A stretch of 64,000 nucleotides of DNA from an uncultured cyanobacterium (lineage in GTDB: Bacteria > Cyanobacteriota > Cyanobacteriia > Phormidesmidales > Phormidesmidaceae), in the NCBI GenBank assembly GCA_963793265.1, contig CAWBZI010000001.1:1376001-1440000 (forward strand). The letters are read 5' to 3'. Positions 49,704-62,537 of this stretch are shown one piece after another. A program made the position numbers and the translations under genes. A model generated the notes under the pieces. That model was not told the origin of the DNA and made no database searches. It was given only the letters and a program-made list of their open reading frames with translations. The first letter of the stretch is position 1, and each line of letters opens with the position of its first letter.

Positions 49704-50273
49704 ATGAGAGAAATATTAATTAGCTTTGGCGTGGTTGTCGCTTGCTGCGCGGTGCTGCTAGTCGCTCAGTTCACAGGCGGCGATAGCGAAACAGCGGTTG
49801 CTGGCGATACGTTGCAGGCTCCTGCCGCGCAGACTGAGACGCTAATAGCTCAGGGCAGCGCGAGTGATTTGGTGACAGGCAGTACTACAGGAGGAGACGC
49901 GGTGACAAACCCACAGGCAGACGCCAACAATATTGTAACGACTGATTCGGGCCTTAAGTATGAGGTGATTGCAGAGGGCGATGGGGCTAAGCCTCAGCCA
50001 GGCAATCGCGTGTTTGTGCACTATGTTGGCACGTTAGAAGACGGCACTAAGTTTGATAGTTCGCGCGATCGCGGTCGTCCTTTTGATTTCACTATCGGCC
50101 AGGGCCAGGTGATCAAAGGCTGGGATGAAGGCGTTGGCGACATGCAAGTCGGCGACAGACGCAAGCTAATCATCCCTCCCGAACTCGGTTACGGTGCTCG
50201 TGGTGCAGGCGGCGTCATTCCCCCGAATGCAACTCTGATTTTTGATGTAGAGCTGCTGCGGATTGGTAGCTAG
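49704..50273 (+). CDS. FKBP-type peptidyl-prolyl isomerase
   Basis: [38 protein letters not shown]. Confidence 0.96.
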
Positions 50274-51041: not shown

Positions 51042-54000
51042 TCAATCTCTATTCGAGAAATCAGAAGCCCTGTTAAGAAACTGCGTATATTCTGGCTGAA
51101 ACAACAGCTTTACGGTGCCCGTTGGCCCATTGCGATGCTTGGTTAAAATAATCTCTGCAATGCCGCGATCAGGCGTATCAGGATCATAATATTCTTCGCG
51201 ATAGAGCATCATAATCAAATCTGCATCCTGCTCGATTGCGCCCGAATTATGCGAAACAATACCATCTGCGACCCATGAGGCTGGCCCCGGAACTGTTAAA
51301 TCGTATACTGGCGCTTCACCGATAGGTTCAATAGATACGATTTCGTCCCAGAAGATATGAGAACCTGCAATCTCTTTAAGCCTCGGTCTTTCTAGAACGT
51401 TGACAGATCTTGGAGAGACTTCTGGCGTTGAAGAGAATTTAGGATGAGATAGTCTACTGTAGGAAGTTCCCGTTAGTACAAGTCTAGAGTCAGGCCAGGG
51501 CTCTGCGGACTCAGAGATCTGAAGAATGTGGTTTGCTACGGCAATCCGGTCGCCAACTTCTAAAGTTTTTATCCGCTGCCATCCATCAAATGTATAAAGG
51601 CGGTGCTTACCAGTTGCTTTCAGCTTTCGTCCGCTGGCAGTCGTAATTTCGTAGATAGACTTTACACCTACCTGCCAAACTAAGTCTGTTTTAGCTTTAA
51701 TTAACTGACCTCGGCCATCTAGGCTAATAACTTCAGGCGCTTGTCCAACTAAGTCGGCAATGGGCAAACGTCTACCATCAGCGAGCCATACCAGCGTGTC
51801 TCCCGTAACGCATTCTCTAAGATCAGACATCATGGGGCGCTTGTTAGTTCGAGACTCTACGCCACGGCTGAGCTGAGATAGCGCAATCACAGGGACGTTG
51901 AGTTCGCGAGCTAGTCCTTTGAGCGATCGCGTCATTTTAGAAAGCTCCTGCACCCGGTTATCGCCACTGCCCTCCATCAGTTGCAAGTAATCAATCAATA
52001 TAAGGCCCAGCGACCCACCCTGCTCTGCCTGCAACCTACGCGCCTTAGATCGAATCTCTGTCACGCCAATGCCCGGCGTATCGTCAATAAAGATAGGTAG
52101 CTGTGAAAGCGTATTAATCGCATGGCCCATCGGCTCCCACTCGTGCTGAGCAATTCTTCCAGTACGCAACCGGCCACTTTCAATCTTCGCCTCTGAAGAA
52201 AGTAGGCGATAGATGAGCTGCGCTTTTGACATCTCTAAGCTGAAAATAGCAACAGGCTGACGATGGGTATCTGCGATGTTGCGAGCTACGTTAAGCACAA
52301 AGCTTGTATTGTGTACACAAATGTCGTTAGCAACAAAGTTGTGAGTATCTGGAATAGTAAGATCGTAGACTTGTTGAATGCCAATAGGCTCGATAGCAAC
52401 AATTCTATCCCAGTAGATTTCGCTGGCGGCAAGATCTTGCAATGGCCGATCTTCTAGCGCGGTTGCTAGCGCTGATAGTCGAGGCCGACTGAGTGCTCTA
52501 GTACCAACGTGAATGTTACTTGAACCTACCAGTTCTGCTCGCCTGGCCAGTGCAGACCAGCTTTCCGCACCCTTCGCAGCTTTTAAGTTCTCCCAGACTT
52601 CAACTGGAACAAGGTCACGATTGGTGTGGTATTTTTTGGCAGTGATCACCTCTGCAACTCGATTAACAGAAGATTCTTTACTAAAAATACCAATCTCATT
52701 TACAAAGATCGAGAGCGCGGCAGCATCAGTAATATCTAACTGCCAGGCGACTCGCCGTGTGCCTTGATACTTCATGTTACGCCGCTTGAGCGCGGCAATA
52801 ATGCCAAATCGAAGCAGTAAATGCTGAATTTGCTGAGCAAGCTTTTTACAGACAGAGGCATAGCCAATTTGAGCCTGTCCGCTCGCGAGCACAGAGGCCC
52901 AGCCATCCGTTGCAAATAGCCGATTCAAAAATAGGGCGAGCTGTGGTTTGGGCAGTGTGAAAACCACATCAGGAATGACTTTATTATGAGCGCTGCACTG
53001 CCACAGACCCAAGCTTTCTAACCATGCCGAAACTGGGTTCTTTTCAGATCCTTCATCAGTATCAGCGGTCACGGCTAAAGACGGGACGCGCGTTCCACGA
53101 CTGGTGTTCACTCTGACTTTCACGCAGGGGAAGTGATGTACCGCCTCGGTGAAGTCGGTTTGCATGAGGACGTTCGTATTCGTAAACCTCGGAGAGCTGC
53201 CTGTCAGCCCGCCGTCACCAATAAAATAGGCCAGAAGTTTGACTTCGTGATCTGGGAGGGGTTGATTGCCGAAGATAGATAGTTTTCTAGGGACGGCAAT
53301 GTGATCGCCCACTCCTAACTCCGCTAAAGGTGACCACCCATTCATCGTCAAATAAGGATGCGTCAACGTCGTCTCAACCTGTCGCCCTAACCGCGTAGTG
53401 ACTCTAAAGACAGGCTTCATACCATCATCCACGAAAGCAGAAGGCTCAGTCACTTCAAAGCGCCAGCGGCTGTTTAAAGTGAGTAAATTAGCCTGGCGCT
53501 TCTTATAAATAGCCTCAATGGTCGTGACTGAACCATCGGCTAGCAAAATTTCAGCATTGGCGCTCAGACACTTGCCCATAGCCGGACGTGCAGCGGCAAT
53601 GATGAGATCGGAGCGTTGAAAGCCCTGGGTCATCGCGTCTAAGTCATAGAAGCCGCAGGCGAGGCCAGGGAGAACCATGCCAAGCGATCGCTGCTCAATA
53701 TCCGAAAACGTATCGGTCAAAATGTCCGAAGTCGCCGTCAGTCCTGCCGTGGGCCGCTCTTGCGTAATCCCAAATAGCTGCTGCTCAGACTTATCGAGCA
53801 CTTCTTCCAAAGGCGTCTCAGTCTCGTAGCCAAGCTGAATAATCTCGCCGCCCGACTGAATCAGCTTACGGCGCGTGTACTTATCCATCACCAGCTTGGC
53901 GTACTGGTCAATATTCGCCGCGCTAATCGTGCGATCCACAAGCTGAGCCAGTCGGCTTTGCCCGCCTACCTTATCCAAGGTGCCTTTGTCCTTAAGCCAG

Positions 54001-54233
54001 GTGGCAATGCCCATCAGGTCGGTAGGCAATCCTCTCGCCTGCAAATCCAGCGCCGCCTGGTAAATGTTGCGATGTGCGCCAATGTAAAAGGCTTCAGGCG
54101 TAATGACTTCAGTAACCCGTCCAATCGCTTCAGGGTCAATGAGAATGCCGCCCAAAATCGCTTCTTCCGCTTCGATATTTTGAGGCGGTAGGCGATCAAT
54201 AGCGGGTTTGAATCGAGGTTCTGAAGCAACCAT
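51042..54233 (-). CDS. dnaB: Replicative helicase DnaB precursor with two inteins (453-aa extein)
   Basis: [54 protein letters not shown]. Confidence 0.98.
51246..51812 (-). mobile_element. Mini-intein (189 aa) at SDLRE/SG site
   Basis: C1 CVTGDT, block B TGKH, block F VYDLTV, terminal HN followed by Ser; no LAGLIDADG motifs. Confidence 0.93.
52308..53570 (-). mobile_element. Intein with LAGLIDADG homing endonuclease (421 aa) in Walker A (GK/T)
   Basis: [40 protein letters not shown] followed by Thr. Confidence 0.95.
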
Positions 54234-55866: not shown

Positions 55867-56577
55867 CTACAGATCTTCTGGAGAAATACCTAGCTCTTTA
55901 AGTTTAGCGGCTAGCCTATCTGCTCTCTCTTCCGCCTGTTGGGCTTCTTGTTGAGCCTGCTGAACTCTCTCCTCTGGCGTAAGCAACCTCATGCCCGATG
56001 CGTCGTACCAATATAGCCACTCTCGCTCTCGTCCCAGATAGGTTCCGCGCGATCGCCCTAGCCCCAACCCAATCTCAGGCAGCCAAACTGGATTACCTTC
56101 CAACAGTTTGTACTCCCCATCAACAAGCCGATACACTTCCAACGGCTCTCTCTTTCGCCTAGATTGCGGGTTAGGCAGGTAGATTGCGTAGTAACGAACC
56201 CCTAAAGCCGCATACCTTTCCTTCTTTTTCTCGTATTCGCCGCCATATGTTTTAGAGACAACCTCTAATGCAAGCATAGGCGGAATACCCTCTTCCTCCC
56301 ACAGCACATAGCTCAAGCGGCCCTCTTCTCCGACAAATCGTTCGACTCCAATACTCAAAAAGCCATCTGGGACGATTGCGGGCTTCTTTGGGTCAAAATA
56401 TACACCCATATCTACGCCAAAAAACCAGTCCATCCTATCGGGCCAGGCCATCGCTAAAACAGCATCCAACAGGTTAGGAATCAAATTTTGCAGCTCATTA
56501 TCCACTGGCGTCTCATCAGAATCAGGTAGCTCAGCAGAAGAGGGCAAGCACTGTCTTGGGTCGTACTGTAGCACCAT
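55867..56577 (-). CDS. Uma2 (DUF820) endonuclease
   Basis: LPDSDETPVDNELQ, VPDGF, LEVVS, Q/E-rich coiled tail. Confidence 0.93.
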   Translation of the reverse strand: MVLQYDPRQCLPSSAELPDSDETPVDNELQNLIPNLLDAVLAMAWPDRMDWFFGVDMGVYFDPKKPAIVPDGFLSIGVERFVGEEGRLSYVLWEEEGIPPMLALEVVSKTYGGEYEKKKERYAALGVRYYAIYLPNPQSRRKREPLEVYRLVDGEYKLLEGNPVWLPEIGLGLGRSRGTYLGREREWLYWYDASGMRLLTPEERVQQAQQEAQQAEERADRLAAKLKELGISPEDL

Positions 56578-56650
56578 AGTTTTACGCGTGGTTTCAACGG
56601 CTCAAAATTCTACTACTGTTATCTTAGCTGCCTCGTCGATTTCCCTTACT

Positions 56651-57433
56651 ATGAACCCGCTTTCAATCTTGACTCAGACCAAACTACAGCGCGTTTCAGA
56701 CGGTCACGCAGCATCTTTGTTCGAGTCCTGTGATTCTACAAAACGCACCCTCGTCCTTGTTTGGCCTCAGCTTGGCGACTTCGACACCTTAGAATATGCC
56801 TGGTGGGTGGAACGCGATCGCTCAAAACTCCAGTCTTACAACATCCAAGTCAGAGCCGTTGCCATAGGCGATCGCGCTGCCGGTCAAAAGTTCTGCACCT
56901 ACACCGGCTTCCCCCCAGAACACCTATACATAGATCCTGCCGCCTCACTCCACCAAAAGCTAGACCTATACAAAGGACTCACTGCTTCACTCCCCGGCCT
57001 CAGCCCACAACAAAACGGCTACTTGAACCTTTTGCTCATGTGCGCAGGCATCGGCAGTCCTGGCACCCTCAAAGAAGTCTTTCGCGGCTACAAAGGTGAT
57101 AAAAGTGCGCCTCAGCTCATTGCGGATGATGAAGTGGTGAAAGCTGCGCCTTTGCCTGCGCTGAAAGGTGAGGTGTTCAAGCGAGCAGGGGGTAAGGGGT
57201 TTCAAAGACCGTTTGAGCTGGCGACATTGCGATTGCGGAATATGGCAGAGGTGTTGGGTAATTGGAAAACTTATGTGCCGGATGCGGCGTATTTGACGCA
57301 GCGGGGGGCGACTTTTTTGTTTGAGGCTGGGGAGAGGGAGGTGTTGTATGAGTGGCGCGATCGCAACATCTTAGGCTTTGCAGAGAACATGAGCGACCCA
57401 CTATCCTTTTTAGACGGACTGTTTGATTCGTAG
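56651..57433 (+). CDS. Peroxiredoxin-like (AhpC/TSA_2) protein
   Basis: PQLGDFD, MCAGIGSPGTL, RPFELATLRL, QRGATFLF. Confidence 0.85.
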   Translation: MNPLSILTQTKLQRVSDGHAASLFESCDSTKRTLVLVWPQLGDFDTLEYAWWVERDRSKLQSYNIQVRAVAIGDRAAGQKFCTYTGFPPEHLYIDPAASLHQKLDLYKGLTASLPGLSPQQNGYLNLLLMCAGIGSPGTLKEVFRGYKGDKSAPQLIADDEVVKAAPLPALKGEVFKRAGGKGFQRPFELATLRLRNMAEVLGNWKTYVPDAAYLTQRGATFLFEAGEREVLYEWRDRNILGFAENMSDPLSFLDGLFDS

Positions 57434-57482
57434 GCGCTCAGTTTGTGAGGGCGTTGTTGCGTGATTTGGCAATAGAGATAAG

Positions 57483-57821
57483 CTACGCTTCTATGAGCCT
57501 ACAGAGTGTTTCAGCGATCACAGCCTGCGTTGACACGCTTAAGCTACCAAGCTCACGACGAACCATAGATTGACGTAGCGTAATTAGGTGATCAAGTCGA
57601 ATAATCGAAGGTTTGATCAGACCACTAATTGAGAAATCAGCACTACTGCTGTCTATTCTTATATCCGTCTTTGGCGAAAGCTTCCTAGTCTGACTGGTGA
57701 TTAGTGCAAAGATGACGTGCTGATAGACTCCAATCGAATTAGTAAGGCAGTAAGCAGGCCGAACTTTGCTAGACGAAAGGTCGTCAAAAGGGAATTGAAT
57801 TAAGACGACTTTACCCTTCAT
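57483..57821 (-). CDS. PemK/MazF family toxin
   Basis: FPFDDLSSSKVRPA, ITS, GLIKPSIIRLD. Confidence 0.88.
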   Translation of the reverse strand: MKGKVVLIQFPFDDLSSSKVRPAYCLTNSIGVYQHVIFALITSQTRKLSPKTDIRIDSSSADFSISGLIKPSIIRLDHLITLRQSMVRRELGSLSVSTQAVIAETLCRLIEA

Positions 57822-58056
57822 AGTTAACAGGGTGGCCATCGTTCAGCGTATAGATATCCTCTTCGGCATCTTGCAAAAATGCAAACGATGGATTTTTTGC
57901 AGCGGCTTCACACCATTCGCTCTCGCTGATATCGCCATCAGATTCAGCAAGTAAAACAATAACGCGCACTCTCTGATCTATAGCATCGCTTAGCGGCTGA
58001 TCTAACTGAAGATAGCCCTGACTATTCACTTTCCCAGTCACTTCTATAGCCCGCAT
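57811..58056 (-). CDS. Cognate antitoxin
   Basis: Small acidic protein, NPSFAFLQDAEEDIYT..DG motif; overlaps toxin start. Confidence 0.8.
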   Translation of the reverse strand: MRAIEVTGKVNSQGYLQLDQPLSDAIDQRVRVIVLLAESDGDISESEWCEAAAKNPSFAFLQDAEEDIYTLNDGHPVNYEG

Positions 58057-58233
58057 ACTTCTACCTTCAAAAACATGAACTCGTTTATCTTATAGTCTAG
58101 CTCAGCAACATAGCGCTTACTATCTATGGATAAAAACACATAGCCATCGGGGTAAATATGAGTATATATGCGATTAACCGCTCTCATTCTTGAAGTCTAT
58201 ATTTGACTGAGTGATTTGAGGTTTAGCTAGAAT

Positions 58234-58743
58234 ATGGAATCATTAGAACTATCACCTGCTCAATCAAAGCTAAAGTTAACGCTTTGGAACGCTGAAGTAG
58301 AAAGCTTTGACAGCCGTGATTTCTATATTTGGTTACAGGATATGGGATTGCCGGAGTCAGTCGTAACGAGGTTACACGACCTAGCACATAAAACTGTTCA
58401 TATGGGGAAGAAAGTTGTTTCTATTGGGAAAGTTCTTCTACTTAAAATCATCAACTTCGTGAAAGAAAACCCCTGCTTAGTTGCTGGAGCAGGTATAGGC
58501 ACAGTATTCGGAGCTGCTATTTATACCCTTATAAATTCTTTGCCTATGGGCCTCGGTCAAATTTTAGAGCCAATTGCTAGGATTCTAGGATTAGGCGCTG
58601 CTTCACTAGGCGCTAGCTTAGGGCATTCTCTTGATAGAGAACTTAAAAGTATGAGTCAGAGTTTGCAAGAAGCTGCAAGCAGCTTTTTTAGTCTATTAGC
58701 GAACGTGCTACGCTCACTCGCCAATCAATTTGTTCCTGCCTGA
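58234..58743 (+). CDS. Hypothetical glycine-zipper membrane protein
   Basis: GAGIGTVFG and GAASLGASLG GxxxG arrays; AT-rich. Confidence 0.75.
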   Translation: MESLELSPAQSKLKLTLWNAEVESFDSRDFYIWLQDMGLPESVVTRLHDLAHKTVHMGKKVVSIGKVLLLKIINFVKENPCLVAGAGIGTVFGAAIYTLINSLPMGLGQILEPIARILGLGAASLGASLGHSLDRELKSMSQSLQEAASSFFSLLANVLRSLANQFVPA

Positions 58744-58774
58744 ACCGATAAACCTGAATTATTACAATTGAATC

Positions 58775-59347
58775 ATGTCAAAGAAAGAACGTAGTAAAGA
58801 AGAACTTTTAAAGGCGCTTGAAAGGCTAAGAGAAGGCGGTGATAACATTTCCTTCATGGCTGATATTGGAGCTGTTGGAATCGGCGCAGTAGGCGCTGGT
58901 GCAGCAGCTTTTGCGTTTGGCGGAACTACGGCTACCGCACTGTTCGGTTTAGTTGCTATCCCTGTAGCCGCTCCTCTAGCTGTTGTTGCCGGAGCTGCTG
59001 TGTTGGGCGGCGGCGCTTTGTTCGGAGTCAAAAGAGCTTTTGAAGGCACTTATACCGATGGGAAGAAAGCAGAACTTGTTAGACAATTAGAAGACGAATT
59101 ACGTGAGATAAAAACGAAAGAACGAAAAGATAAAATTAGCCAGGAAGATAAGCGAAAGTTTCATCTCTTTCTAGAAGAACCTATTAAGTTCGACCTGATT
59201 ACGCCTGAAGATGCGCAGCAGCTCATGAAGCTGGTTGAAACAGGAGGTCTTGAGATTAGCGATGCATACCAAACTGTCATCGATATTCTTGCCGAGAATA
59301 AGGACGACAAAGGCGACAAACCTGGTTCGTTAGCACTAGCAAGCTAA
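58775..59347 (+). CDS. Hypothetical glycine-zipper membrane protein with charged C-terminal domain
   Basis: ~55-aa G/A-rich hydrophobic hairpin then coiled coil. Confidence 0.75.
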   Translation: MSKKERSKEELLKALERLREGGDNISFMADIGAVGIGAVGAGAAAFAFGGTTATALFGLVAIPVAAPLAVVAGAAVLGGGALFGVKRAFEGTYTDGKKAELVRQLEDELREIKTKERKDKISQEDKRKFHLFLEEPIKFDLITPEDAQQLMKLVETGGLEISDAYQTVIDILAENKDDKGDKPGSLALAS

Positions 59348-59569
59348 GAAGTCAATTCCAAATTTACCGCCGCTTCTCAATCTTCTTTGAGCACCAAAGG
59401 TTTGACGTATTTCATTCTCTTCACGTTTCAGCGATAGCCCATTCTTAATCATATGCTTCGCTAAGCCTTCCGGCTCAAGCTTCAAAACTGAGAAGTATGT
59501 TTCATTCACTATTAAGTCCGAGCATTGAATCATCGATGTTCGGACTTTGTGGTTCTTAGCCATCATATT

Positions 59570-59725
59570 TTACATAGCCTCTTCCGTTCTCAAGCTAGAA
59601 GACAGTTCTAACCAGCAAGACCATTTCGACATTGGCAACGTATTTCTTACCTTGTTCTTCAAATAAGAAGTCACAATCTCAGCCGACTGCAACATATCAA
59701 GCAGAGATTGAAGATCCCGATTCAT
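59570..59725 (-). pseudogene. Truncated HepT (DUF86) toxin
   Basis: MNRDLQSLLDMLQSAEIVTSY overlapping the mntA-like 3' end, then unrelated sequence and stop; no RNxxxH motif. Confidence 0.8.
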
Positions 59726-60032
59726 AAATTACCTGAGCAGAAGACAGAATTTCGTGACGGCGAAGATAGTTGGCGCTGCTTTCAATACTAGGCCGAGTGA
59801 CGACATCTACGTCCCTTCCAAAAATTGTCTTCAGATCCGCTTCCATCAAGTCGAGGTCATAGAAGCTAGGAACAGCCTCAGAGCGATATTGAATCATCAC
59901 GTCGATATCGCTGCTGTCAGGCCGAAAGTCATCACGTAAAACAGAGCCAAACAGCGCAAACTCTATCAAATTCCATTTTTGACAGAACTGCGCTATCTCA
60001 GCTATCGGCAGCTTAATGTTTTTGAGCTGCAT
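59697..60032 (-). CDS. MntA-like minimal nucleotidyltransferase antitoxin
   Basis: FGSVLRDDFRPDSSDIDV; FGRDVDVV. Confidence 0.9.
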   Translation of the reverse strand: MQLKNIKLPIAEIAQFCQKWNLIEFALFGSVLRDDFRPDSSDIDVMIQYRSEAVPSFYDLDLMEADLKTIFGRDVDVVTRPSIESSANYLRRHEILSSAQVIYESGSSISA

Positions 60033-60180
60033 GAGTTTGCTCCAATTAGCTGCCTCTATTTTGTCAGATTGCGGATGCAGCGATCGCATTCATCGCGATC
60101 GCCCACACCTACGAATCACAAATGGCGTACAATCCACACCCATCCCAAGGCAAACGAATGCCACGAGCCACACAAAATAA

Positions 60181-62452: not shown

Positions 62453-62537
62453 TGCTGTATATAGCGCAAATATCCAAGCTGCAATATCAGACCATTGTTC
62501 AATACCGCGATCCTTTCAAAGTCGCTATCATTTATTT

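Follow-up and report, generated by a model that had tools for sequence, protein, structure and literature searches.

What makes the silent bases of a single gene swing from C to G between two copies of one DNA word? The gene lies at 56588..57433 on the plus strand of the window (the 64,000-nt stretch of DNA analysed here, whose coordinates we use throughout) and is a single open reading frame of 281 aa, counted from the first GTG, with a match to the Pfam family AhpC-TSA_2 (E 1e-20), which bears out the peroxiredoxin-like identity given in the first-pass annotation. The octamer HIP1 (GCGATCGC) stands within it at 56868..56875 and 57357..57364, as annotated, with an additional copy at 56814..56821, 46 nt left of the left anchor, and the DNA between 56875 and 57357 is HIP1-free. 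The base counts that had drawn attention to the interval are exact: 56901-56960 holds A17 C27 G7 T9, and 57301-57356 holds A7 C5 G28 T16. On the plus strand, which leaves the left HIP1, a C-saturated tract (56876..57070) has C at all 20 fourfold G/C sites (56881-57070). A crossover zone with five mixed fourfold sites follows (57071..57123), and then a G-saturated tract (57124..57356) with G at all 24 fourfold G/C sites (57124-57343), where the minus strand, which leaves the right HIP1, is C-rich. From the first to the second half of the interval, third positions go from C39 G7 to C2 G45 and fourfold sites from C23 G1 to C1 G24. Codon endings had been described as changing from C/A to G/T; the C-to-G part of that description stands and the A/T part does not (fourfold A goes from 9 to 5, T from 9 to 9).

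The crossover had been placed near 57100 and read as giving the underlying process a reach of 200-250 nt. The position is sound, being that of the interval midpoint (57116, surrounded by the crossover zone; the minimum of cumulative G-C is at 57070). It gives no reach, however, because 240 nt is half of the 481-nt interval and any symmetric process crosses at the midpoint; genome-wide, the skew decays in two parts, one of about 57 nt and one of about 1 kb. The interval is also the extreme of its genome and therefore unfit for estimating a typical value. Bases on the predicted side fill 47 of its 49 fourfold G/C sites, vs 28.6 +- 3.4 under a genome-average HIP1 model, a skew far beyond chance. 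Among the 2,381 intervals of 250-800 nt that could be scored it comes first (z 5.4, spread 1.38), by raw bases it is second of 1,029, and the gradient is the strongest among 30 orthologs. A bias more than 27-fold the average would be needed for such step-like saturation. Intervals across the genome do not generally change in a step at their midpoint, and none of the readings discussed below accounts for the near-perfect step here.

Accessory flanks were considered as the reason for the interval's strength and rejected, as genome-wide proxies gave rho 0.00 and 0.04, and edge genes (0.71 +- 0.09) were compared with inner genes (0.62 +- 0.03). The flanks of the gene are barely common to 29 orthologs (upstream 1, downstream 0), and 15 or so orthologs have another downstream neighbour in common. 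Here the neighbours are a Uma2 family gene (55867-56577, minus strand) and a PemK-like toxin (57483-58056, minus strand), the latter with an overlapping upstream 81-aa open reading frame that lacks a Pfam match and likely forms a toxin-antitoxin pair with it. The HIP1-free 2.7 kb at 57365-60079, of about 43% GC, are likely accessory DNA. Elsewhere in the window, 51042-54233 (minus strand) encodes a DnaB-like helicase of 1,063 aa with two apparent intein insertions, judged from the translation, and about 580 nt of this gene (51236-51823) are missing from contigs of related organisms.

The peroxiredoxin-like gene is the carrier of the skew signal and not its cause. GCGATCGC is hyper-abundant, with 74 copies in the window vs 1.9 expected and 6,888 copies (1.2 per kb) in the source genome, and silent positions are C-rich after and G-rich before most of them. 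At 6-10 nt from these 6,888 sites, the fourfold GC skew of the strand leaving HIP1 is -0.63 for coding and -0.60 for template strands, and it is -0.25 in intergenic DNA; the polarity is the same on both gene strands. The change of skew across the site (the flip) has the expected direction at 89% of 2,858 isolated sites. AT skew moves little near HIP1, divergence is lower rather than higher, and GC content is 0.60 vs 0.55, a rise that conversion predicts. All 12 neighbour contexts shift, and a hidden context effect (GC or CG creation) was rejected on that ground. Amino-acid use in coding DNA follows, with Thr at 1.18, His 1.13, Gln 1.09, Met 0.85 and Glu 0.87 after HIP1, and Val at 1.14, Gly 1.08 and Asn 0.87 before it.

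The genome-wide decay fit that the first-pass annotation had suggested does not return a single length scale. On 422,646 sites the decay is described by two parts, either of 57 nt and 966 nt, or of 52 nt with a second part that runs linearly to the next site; a single exponential (122 nt) or a fixed ramp (208 nt) is worse by 690-1,440 lnL, and nearest-site-only and pure linear shapes also fit more poorly. A skew of -0.16 persists at 600-1000 nt in intervals longer than 2.5 kb. Intensity varies among intervals, with the strength near the ends predicting agreement in the middle. The second-neighbour HIP1 adds a weaker effect, for which saturation or site turnover can account.

The flip is specific to HIP1. 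It is absent, away from HIP1, at GATC (13,899 copies), at bare CGATCG and at other palindromes, and 7-mers of HIP1 and bare CGATCG carry little or none. Of the 31,229 8-mers examined 150 nt or more away from HIP1, GTGATCGC (flip 0.64 vs 0.79) and words overlapping it come top. GTGATCGC is the commonest HIP1 variant (766 copies), and was considered as a second active word. A comparison of three genomes (G004, G009 and G007; 378 orthologous genes, about 0.8-0.9 Mb each or ~17% of the genome, 85-90% identical) shows it to be a decay product: it stands opposite the HIP1 of the other two genomes at 46 sites, is conserved in all three at 1, and where it has arisen alone has a flip of 0.04 +- 0.11. 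C2>T makes up 56 of the 118 single-base differences from HIP1 in this trio, a decay route that fits m5CGATCG methylation (PMC6105098, in part). The same route is seen as a live polymorphism in the window, as a G>A at 60101 in the strain of sequencing run X1 turns the HIP1 at 60095-60102 into the C2-to-T decay form.

The trio also dates the skew. Among 563 aligned HIP1 sites, the flip is 0.83 at the 354 shared by all three genomes, 0.58 at the 77 shared by two and 0.08 +- 0.09 at the 49 found in one, vs -0.04 at random positions. At two-genome sites, the lineage without HIP1 is still at 0.59; at one-genome, newly gained sites, the other genomes are at 0.01. The HIP1 sites thus come first, and the skew then builds up and outlasts the loss of the site. 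The link between sawtooth and HIP1 that was first proposed for this one gene is therefore upheld by a flip that is genome-wide, specific to HIP1 and younger than the sites. Retention of the gradient in orthologs lacking the sites had been offered as a refutation, a test that is weaker than assumed because the skew outlasts site loss. The left anchor is present in 22 of 30 orthologs, the additional copy in 11, and the right anchor is exact in 16 and in the C2-to-T decay form in 4. Nine orthologs that lack the downstream site and four that lack the upstream ones retain the gradient, as expected when lineages that lost a site keep its skew; it is lost in two with a mid-gene site and one without any site.

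The effect may not be universal. The flip is 0.57 +- 0.04 in 13 Phormidesmis-like loci, the closest named relatives (244 sites), and 0.68-0.70 in the trio. Four other HIP1-rich groups, with 31-46 sites each, give 0.22 +- 0.10, 0.07 +- 0.14, -0.09 +- 0.16 and 0.02 +- 0.12, and picocyanobacteria give 0.04 +- 0.05. In these small samples from other families it is weak or absent. Two records in the collection, L218 and L239 (titled Salipiger and Sphingobacterium), resemble the listed picocyanobacterial neighbours in carrying an L9 gene with 60-62% identity to the query, and are probably mislabelled or mixed assemblies.

If HIP1 bounds recombination tracts, the correlation of the odd-one-out lineage across a site should drop. 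Such a drop is seen in 215 genes of the trio, where excess concordance falls from +0.017 at a distance, through +0.005 next to a conserved HIP1, to -0.005 across it (z -4.0; z -4.1 with synonymous codons only). The profile is V-shaped, centred on HIP1 and recovered by about 140 nt. The dip remains when base change is conditioned on (z -3.2) and when either half of the genes is taken by itself (z -2.2 and -2.3), and equally conserved control 8-mers show none (0.408-0.415 vs 0.385 +- 0.008). An unpaired distance-bin test gave a z of only -0.2 to -2.5 per bin, and the offset profile is lopsided (83 sites); a z near -6 from an earlier comparison was set aside, as it ignores the sampling of sites. 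Switch points lie within 30 nt of HIP1 in 25 of 122 cases vs 12.4 expected (P 0.0005; one trio), 82 of the 122 lie more than 60 nt from any HIP1, and the 26 best-localised ones give P 0.05-0.09 within 30-60 nt. Most switches are thus elsewhere or poorly localised, and the breakpoint enrichment at the motif, of the kind that defines Chi-type sites, is two-fold and comes from one trio. None of the 13 named loci of the genus is close enough for a second trio. A pair of species representatives, G022 (L018) and G005 (L020), between which the gene is 98% identical, was left out because G022 has a second copy and may be mixed; a recent transfer is the other way to account for the pair.

A possible instance lies beside the right anchor. 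A near-identical strain contig from run X1 (6.7 kb) has 19 differences in all from the window, none of them in the 1.1 kb at 56258-57378, and then seven in the 31 nt at 57379..57409, the first of them 15 nt after the right HIP1. This is likely a recombined patch; as evidence it is anecdotal, coming from a single run with a possible relation to the source sample. Four differences at 50087-50141 form another cluster, which likewise begins 15 nt past the HIP1 at 50065, and clusters at 53475-53489 and 62523-62536 lie 195 and about 500 nt from a HIP1. Two of four clusters among the differences listed (40 of 58 in the strain contigs) therefore begin 15 nt from HIP1 (P about 0.02, with a post hoc threshold); the strain differences are too sparse for a substitution spectrum.

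The spectrum was instead obtained from the trio with a non-reversible likelihood model, whose rates supersede parsimony estimates, on 40,705 of 50,915 fourfold sites; the other 10,210 were dropped as lying inside HIP1 or having a HIP1 context that differs between genomes. With a free root, log rates on the leaving strand change by +0.88 for G>C, +0.50 for A>C and +0.36 for T>C, and by -1.13 for C>G, -0.61 for C>A, -0.34 for C>T, -0.45 for A>G and -0.16 for G>A (bootstrap sd 0.09-0.27). The bias is two-sided, with C on the strand leaving HIP1 both gained and retained. The C/G bias is the largest (2.0 +- 0.4) and is strand-polar, and those for A/G (0.19 +- 0.19) and G/T (0.21 +- 0.31) are indistinct from zero under the free root. 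A two-sided fixation bias fits better than add-only, protect-only and deaminate-only models under both root assumptions. When genes were bootstrapped, a conversion model with six parameters came out ahead of the add-only and protect-only models, with 12 parameters each, in 20 of 20 replicates, although in one of them the protect-only model trailed by only 0.8 lnL. By AIC, a three-parameter selection-like model (247,124.9) is level with conversion (247,124.4), and a free 12-rate model is ahead of both by about 13. The spectrum thus does not separate conversion from selection.

Taken together, the skew pattern and the doubled ancestry switching near HIP1 are likely the scar of one-directional, biased repair starting at the site. 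We read the sawtooth, with about an even chance of being right, as the most pronounced local instance of a strand-polar G-to-C bias that acts genome-wide and is written by HIP1-anchored biased repair of recombination heteroduplex. The reading builds on the observed polarity, its independence of gene direction, the dependence on site age, the two-sided substitution bias and the excess of ancestry switches. Homologous DNA, taken up or from another chromosome copy, would pair across or up to HIP1. A putative nicking protein would then nick at HIP1, and the strand leaving it would be replaced 5' to 3', mostly over about 50-60 nt and now and then up to about 1 kb. Mismatches that hold G (G:G, T:G, A:G) would be detected more often than their counterparts with C (C:C, C:A, C:T), so that the leaving strand gains and keeps C. 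Since opposite strands would be replaced to the left and right of HIP1, ancestry would switch at the site. This one rule of nick, 5'-to-3' replacement and G-mismatch preference would yield the sign of the three clear biases as well as the ancestry switch; two of the five non-zero biases that the mismatch rule predicts (A/G and G/T) are within error of zero. C:C and G:G differ in how well they are detected by mismatch repair. PMC8235422 gives no hierarchy of mismatches. Of this asymmetry, PMC3375284 (in part) bears out no more than that C-G/G-C markers pass repair well, and in pneumococcus it saw no effect of mismatch repair on multi-SNP imports.

The source genome carries candidate parts for such a system, namely MutL, DprA, a Dam-family methylase and several C5 methylases. 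Its MutL holds an endonuclease-like motif. The methylase matches, one to MethyltransfD12 and eight to C5 methylases, are candidates for methylating GATC and CGATCG; one of the eight C5-methylase matches has two stops (C1:809848-811017). MutH was not found in this genome (99% complete; the E. coli control was detected), Vsr was found in 0 of 21 genomes, and NucS was not found in the source genome or in the trio, with weak matches in 4 of 21 genomes. The pattern differs from methyl-directed repair by E. coli Dam/MutH, where GATC is the signal, as GATC away from HIP1 shows no flip here, and from very-short-patch (Vsr) repair, which depletes the T variant of its site, as GTGATCGC is the commonest variant here. 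GGCGCC (5 copies), GCCGGC (6), GGACCC (7) and CGGACC (12) are nearly absent at least 150 nt from HIP1 in the source genome, which suggests restriction-site avoidance.

Alternatively, HIP1 might direct the repair of replication errors, much as in the G-mC mismatch repair proposed by Elhai. Excision would run only 5' to 3', so that errors on the leaving strand are corrected and, if the system is blind to the new strand, those of the other strand are fixed, recombination being incidental. We regard this as unlikely, although MutL with its endonuclease-like motif and both methylase families are present, C>T, A>G and C>G all drop near HIP1, and the ~1 kb part of the decay equals the repair range cited in section 3.4 of PMC4390886 (in part). 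Repair of errors alone does not predict the rise of G>C, A>C and T>C, nor ancestry switches at HIP1, and the protect-only model lost to conversion in every bootstrap; the strand-blind version is compatible with the spectrum, and the mismatch rule applied to replication errors would yield the same one. Distinctly less probable is weak selection for C on the strand leaving HIP1, where a translocating or single-strand-binding protein might be loaded, with the ancestry breaks as a separate effect of HIP1. A fitness model with three parameters does as well as conversion, amino-acid use shifts along with silent sites (after HIP1, Thr and His up, Met and Glu down), and HIP1 itself is under selection (PMC5861425, in part). 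Such selection would have to act on hundreds of thousands of single bases, however, and the effect is context-free, HIP1 derivatives being the sole oriented words that stand out; under a stationary root, moreover, the free model is ahead by 40 AIC, and the G/C bias, at 2.8, is larger than the summed biases through T or A.

Replication and mutation at the site itself fare worse. That HIP1 copies are tiny start or stop points of replication (for example of Okazaki priming or Pol I nick translation) and the skew a leading/lagging asymmetry would suit the sawtooth form, and a long exponential fits no better than a part that runs linearly to the next site; with A/T skew barely changed, ancestry breaks unpredicted and an add-only polymerase-error model fitting more poorly, we think this very unlikely. 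A cut at HIP1 could also be resected, leaving single-stranded 3' tails to deaminate as they do at meiotic hotspots. The skew has the right sign for this, the entering strand being G-rich, and T>C is up on the leaving strand, but G>A there is flat (+0.01 +- 0.08 with a stationary root, -0.16 +- 0.13 with a free root), divergence is not raised, and the deamination model comes last of six, hardly better than no effect under the free root. The spectrum largely refutes this explanation, and its chances are slim indeed. Finally, we give practically no credence to protein composition or chance in the flagged gene alone. First codon positions do shift too (C25/G23 to C14/G35) and the interval was chosen by eye as extreme, but the signal peaks at fourfold sites, is genome-wide and equal on both gene strands, and orthologs with the site elsewhere or with none lose the gradient; chance may still contribute to this interval being the extreme.

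Biased repair of heteroduplex at HIP1, our preferred reading, has relatives among known processes. Classical GC-biased gene conversion (gBGC) is a two-sided fixation bias near breakpoints, with raised GC and amino-acid spill-over, and is strand-symmetric, without action on G/C pairs. HIP1 flanks share the two-sided bias, the raised GC and the spill-over, but here G-to-C is strongest, strand-polar and pinned to a DNA word. Meiotic breaks reportedly show a mirror-image, strand-asymmetric pattern around the break site that stems from added mutation, unlike HIP1, where divergence does not rise and G>A is flat. To our knowledge, standard models of base composition in bacteria do not include a strand-polar G-to-C conversion bias. 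Mismatch-specific survival of imported markers recalls pneumococcal Hex heteroduplex repair (PMC3375284, in part), and the two length scales recall the micro- and macro-imports of H. pylori, of 28 and 1,645 bp (PMC9426483, in part); in the portions of these papers at hand, neither is motif-tied or has a described strand skew.

HIP1 has had no settled function in three decades (PMC5861425 and PMC13756078, both in part), and has earlier been proposed as a recombination or repair signal (bioRxiv 2024.09.10.611283 and PMC4390886, both in part). Elhai's proposed methylation-directed, G-mC mismatch repair explains the gain of HIP1 (PMC4390886, in part). Our system resembles it in the octamer, the methylase families with MutL, the failure to find MutH, about one site per kb and the nick-and-replace logic. 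It differs in that decay here is mostly via C2>T and in that bare CGATCG and 7-mers carry little or no flip; the portions of PMC4390886 at hand make no claim on flank composition or polarity. In PCC 7002, homologous HIP1 raises transformation and integration, an effect that survived addAB deletion (bioRxiv 2024.09.10.611283, in part), and HIP1 abundance tracks competence genes (PMC13756078, in part). As a Chi-like or uptake signal, HIP1 would thus differ from Chi, which is non-palindromic and needs RecBCD/AddAB, in being a palindrome with an addAB-independent effect, and what these two studies measure, as far as their excerpts go, is frequencies or gene co-occurrence rather than the tract edges, base bias and ancestry breaks described here. 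We found no paper, among mostly open-access main texts, on HIP1 flank skew or natural breakpoints at HIP1; 'skew' and 'asymmetr' in that sense are absent from the available main text of PMC5861425, PMC4390886 and PMC13756078, and 'skew' from that of bioRxiv 2024.09.10.611283. New from the trio are a skew that follows site age, a two-sided bias and ancestry breaks at HIP1.

It is possible, though we would not lean on it, that HIP1 is where an undescribed repair system, directed by strand geometry, enters recombination heteroduplex to resolve it. That system would always rewrite the strand 3' from the site, turn each of the thousands of HIP1 copies into an edge of recombination, and drive a G-to-C conversion bias strong enough that codons and proteins are reshaped. 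If true, flank skew would be a readable map of local gene-exchange intensity, and the flagged gene the hottest among intervals of its size. The bias distorts codon-usage, selection and GC-skew analyses in these genomes, and hints at where HIP1 belongs in homology arms. Lastly, HIP1-centred ancestry breaks with a polarity, two length scales and a mismatch preference make the choice between recombination hotspot and repair signal a one-experiment question.
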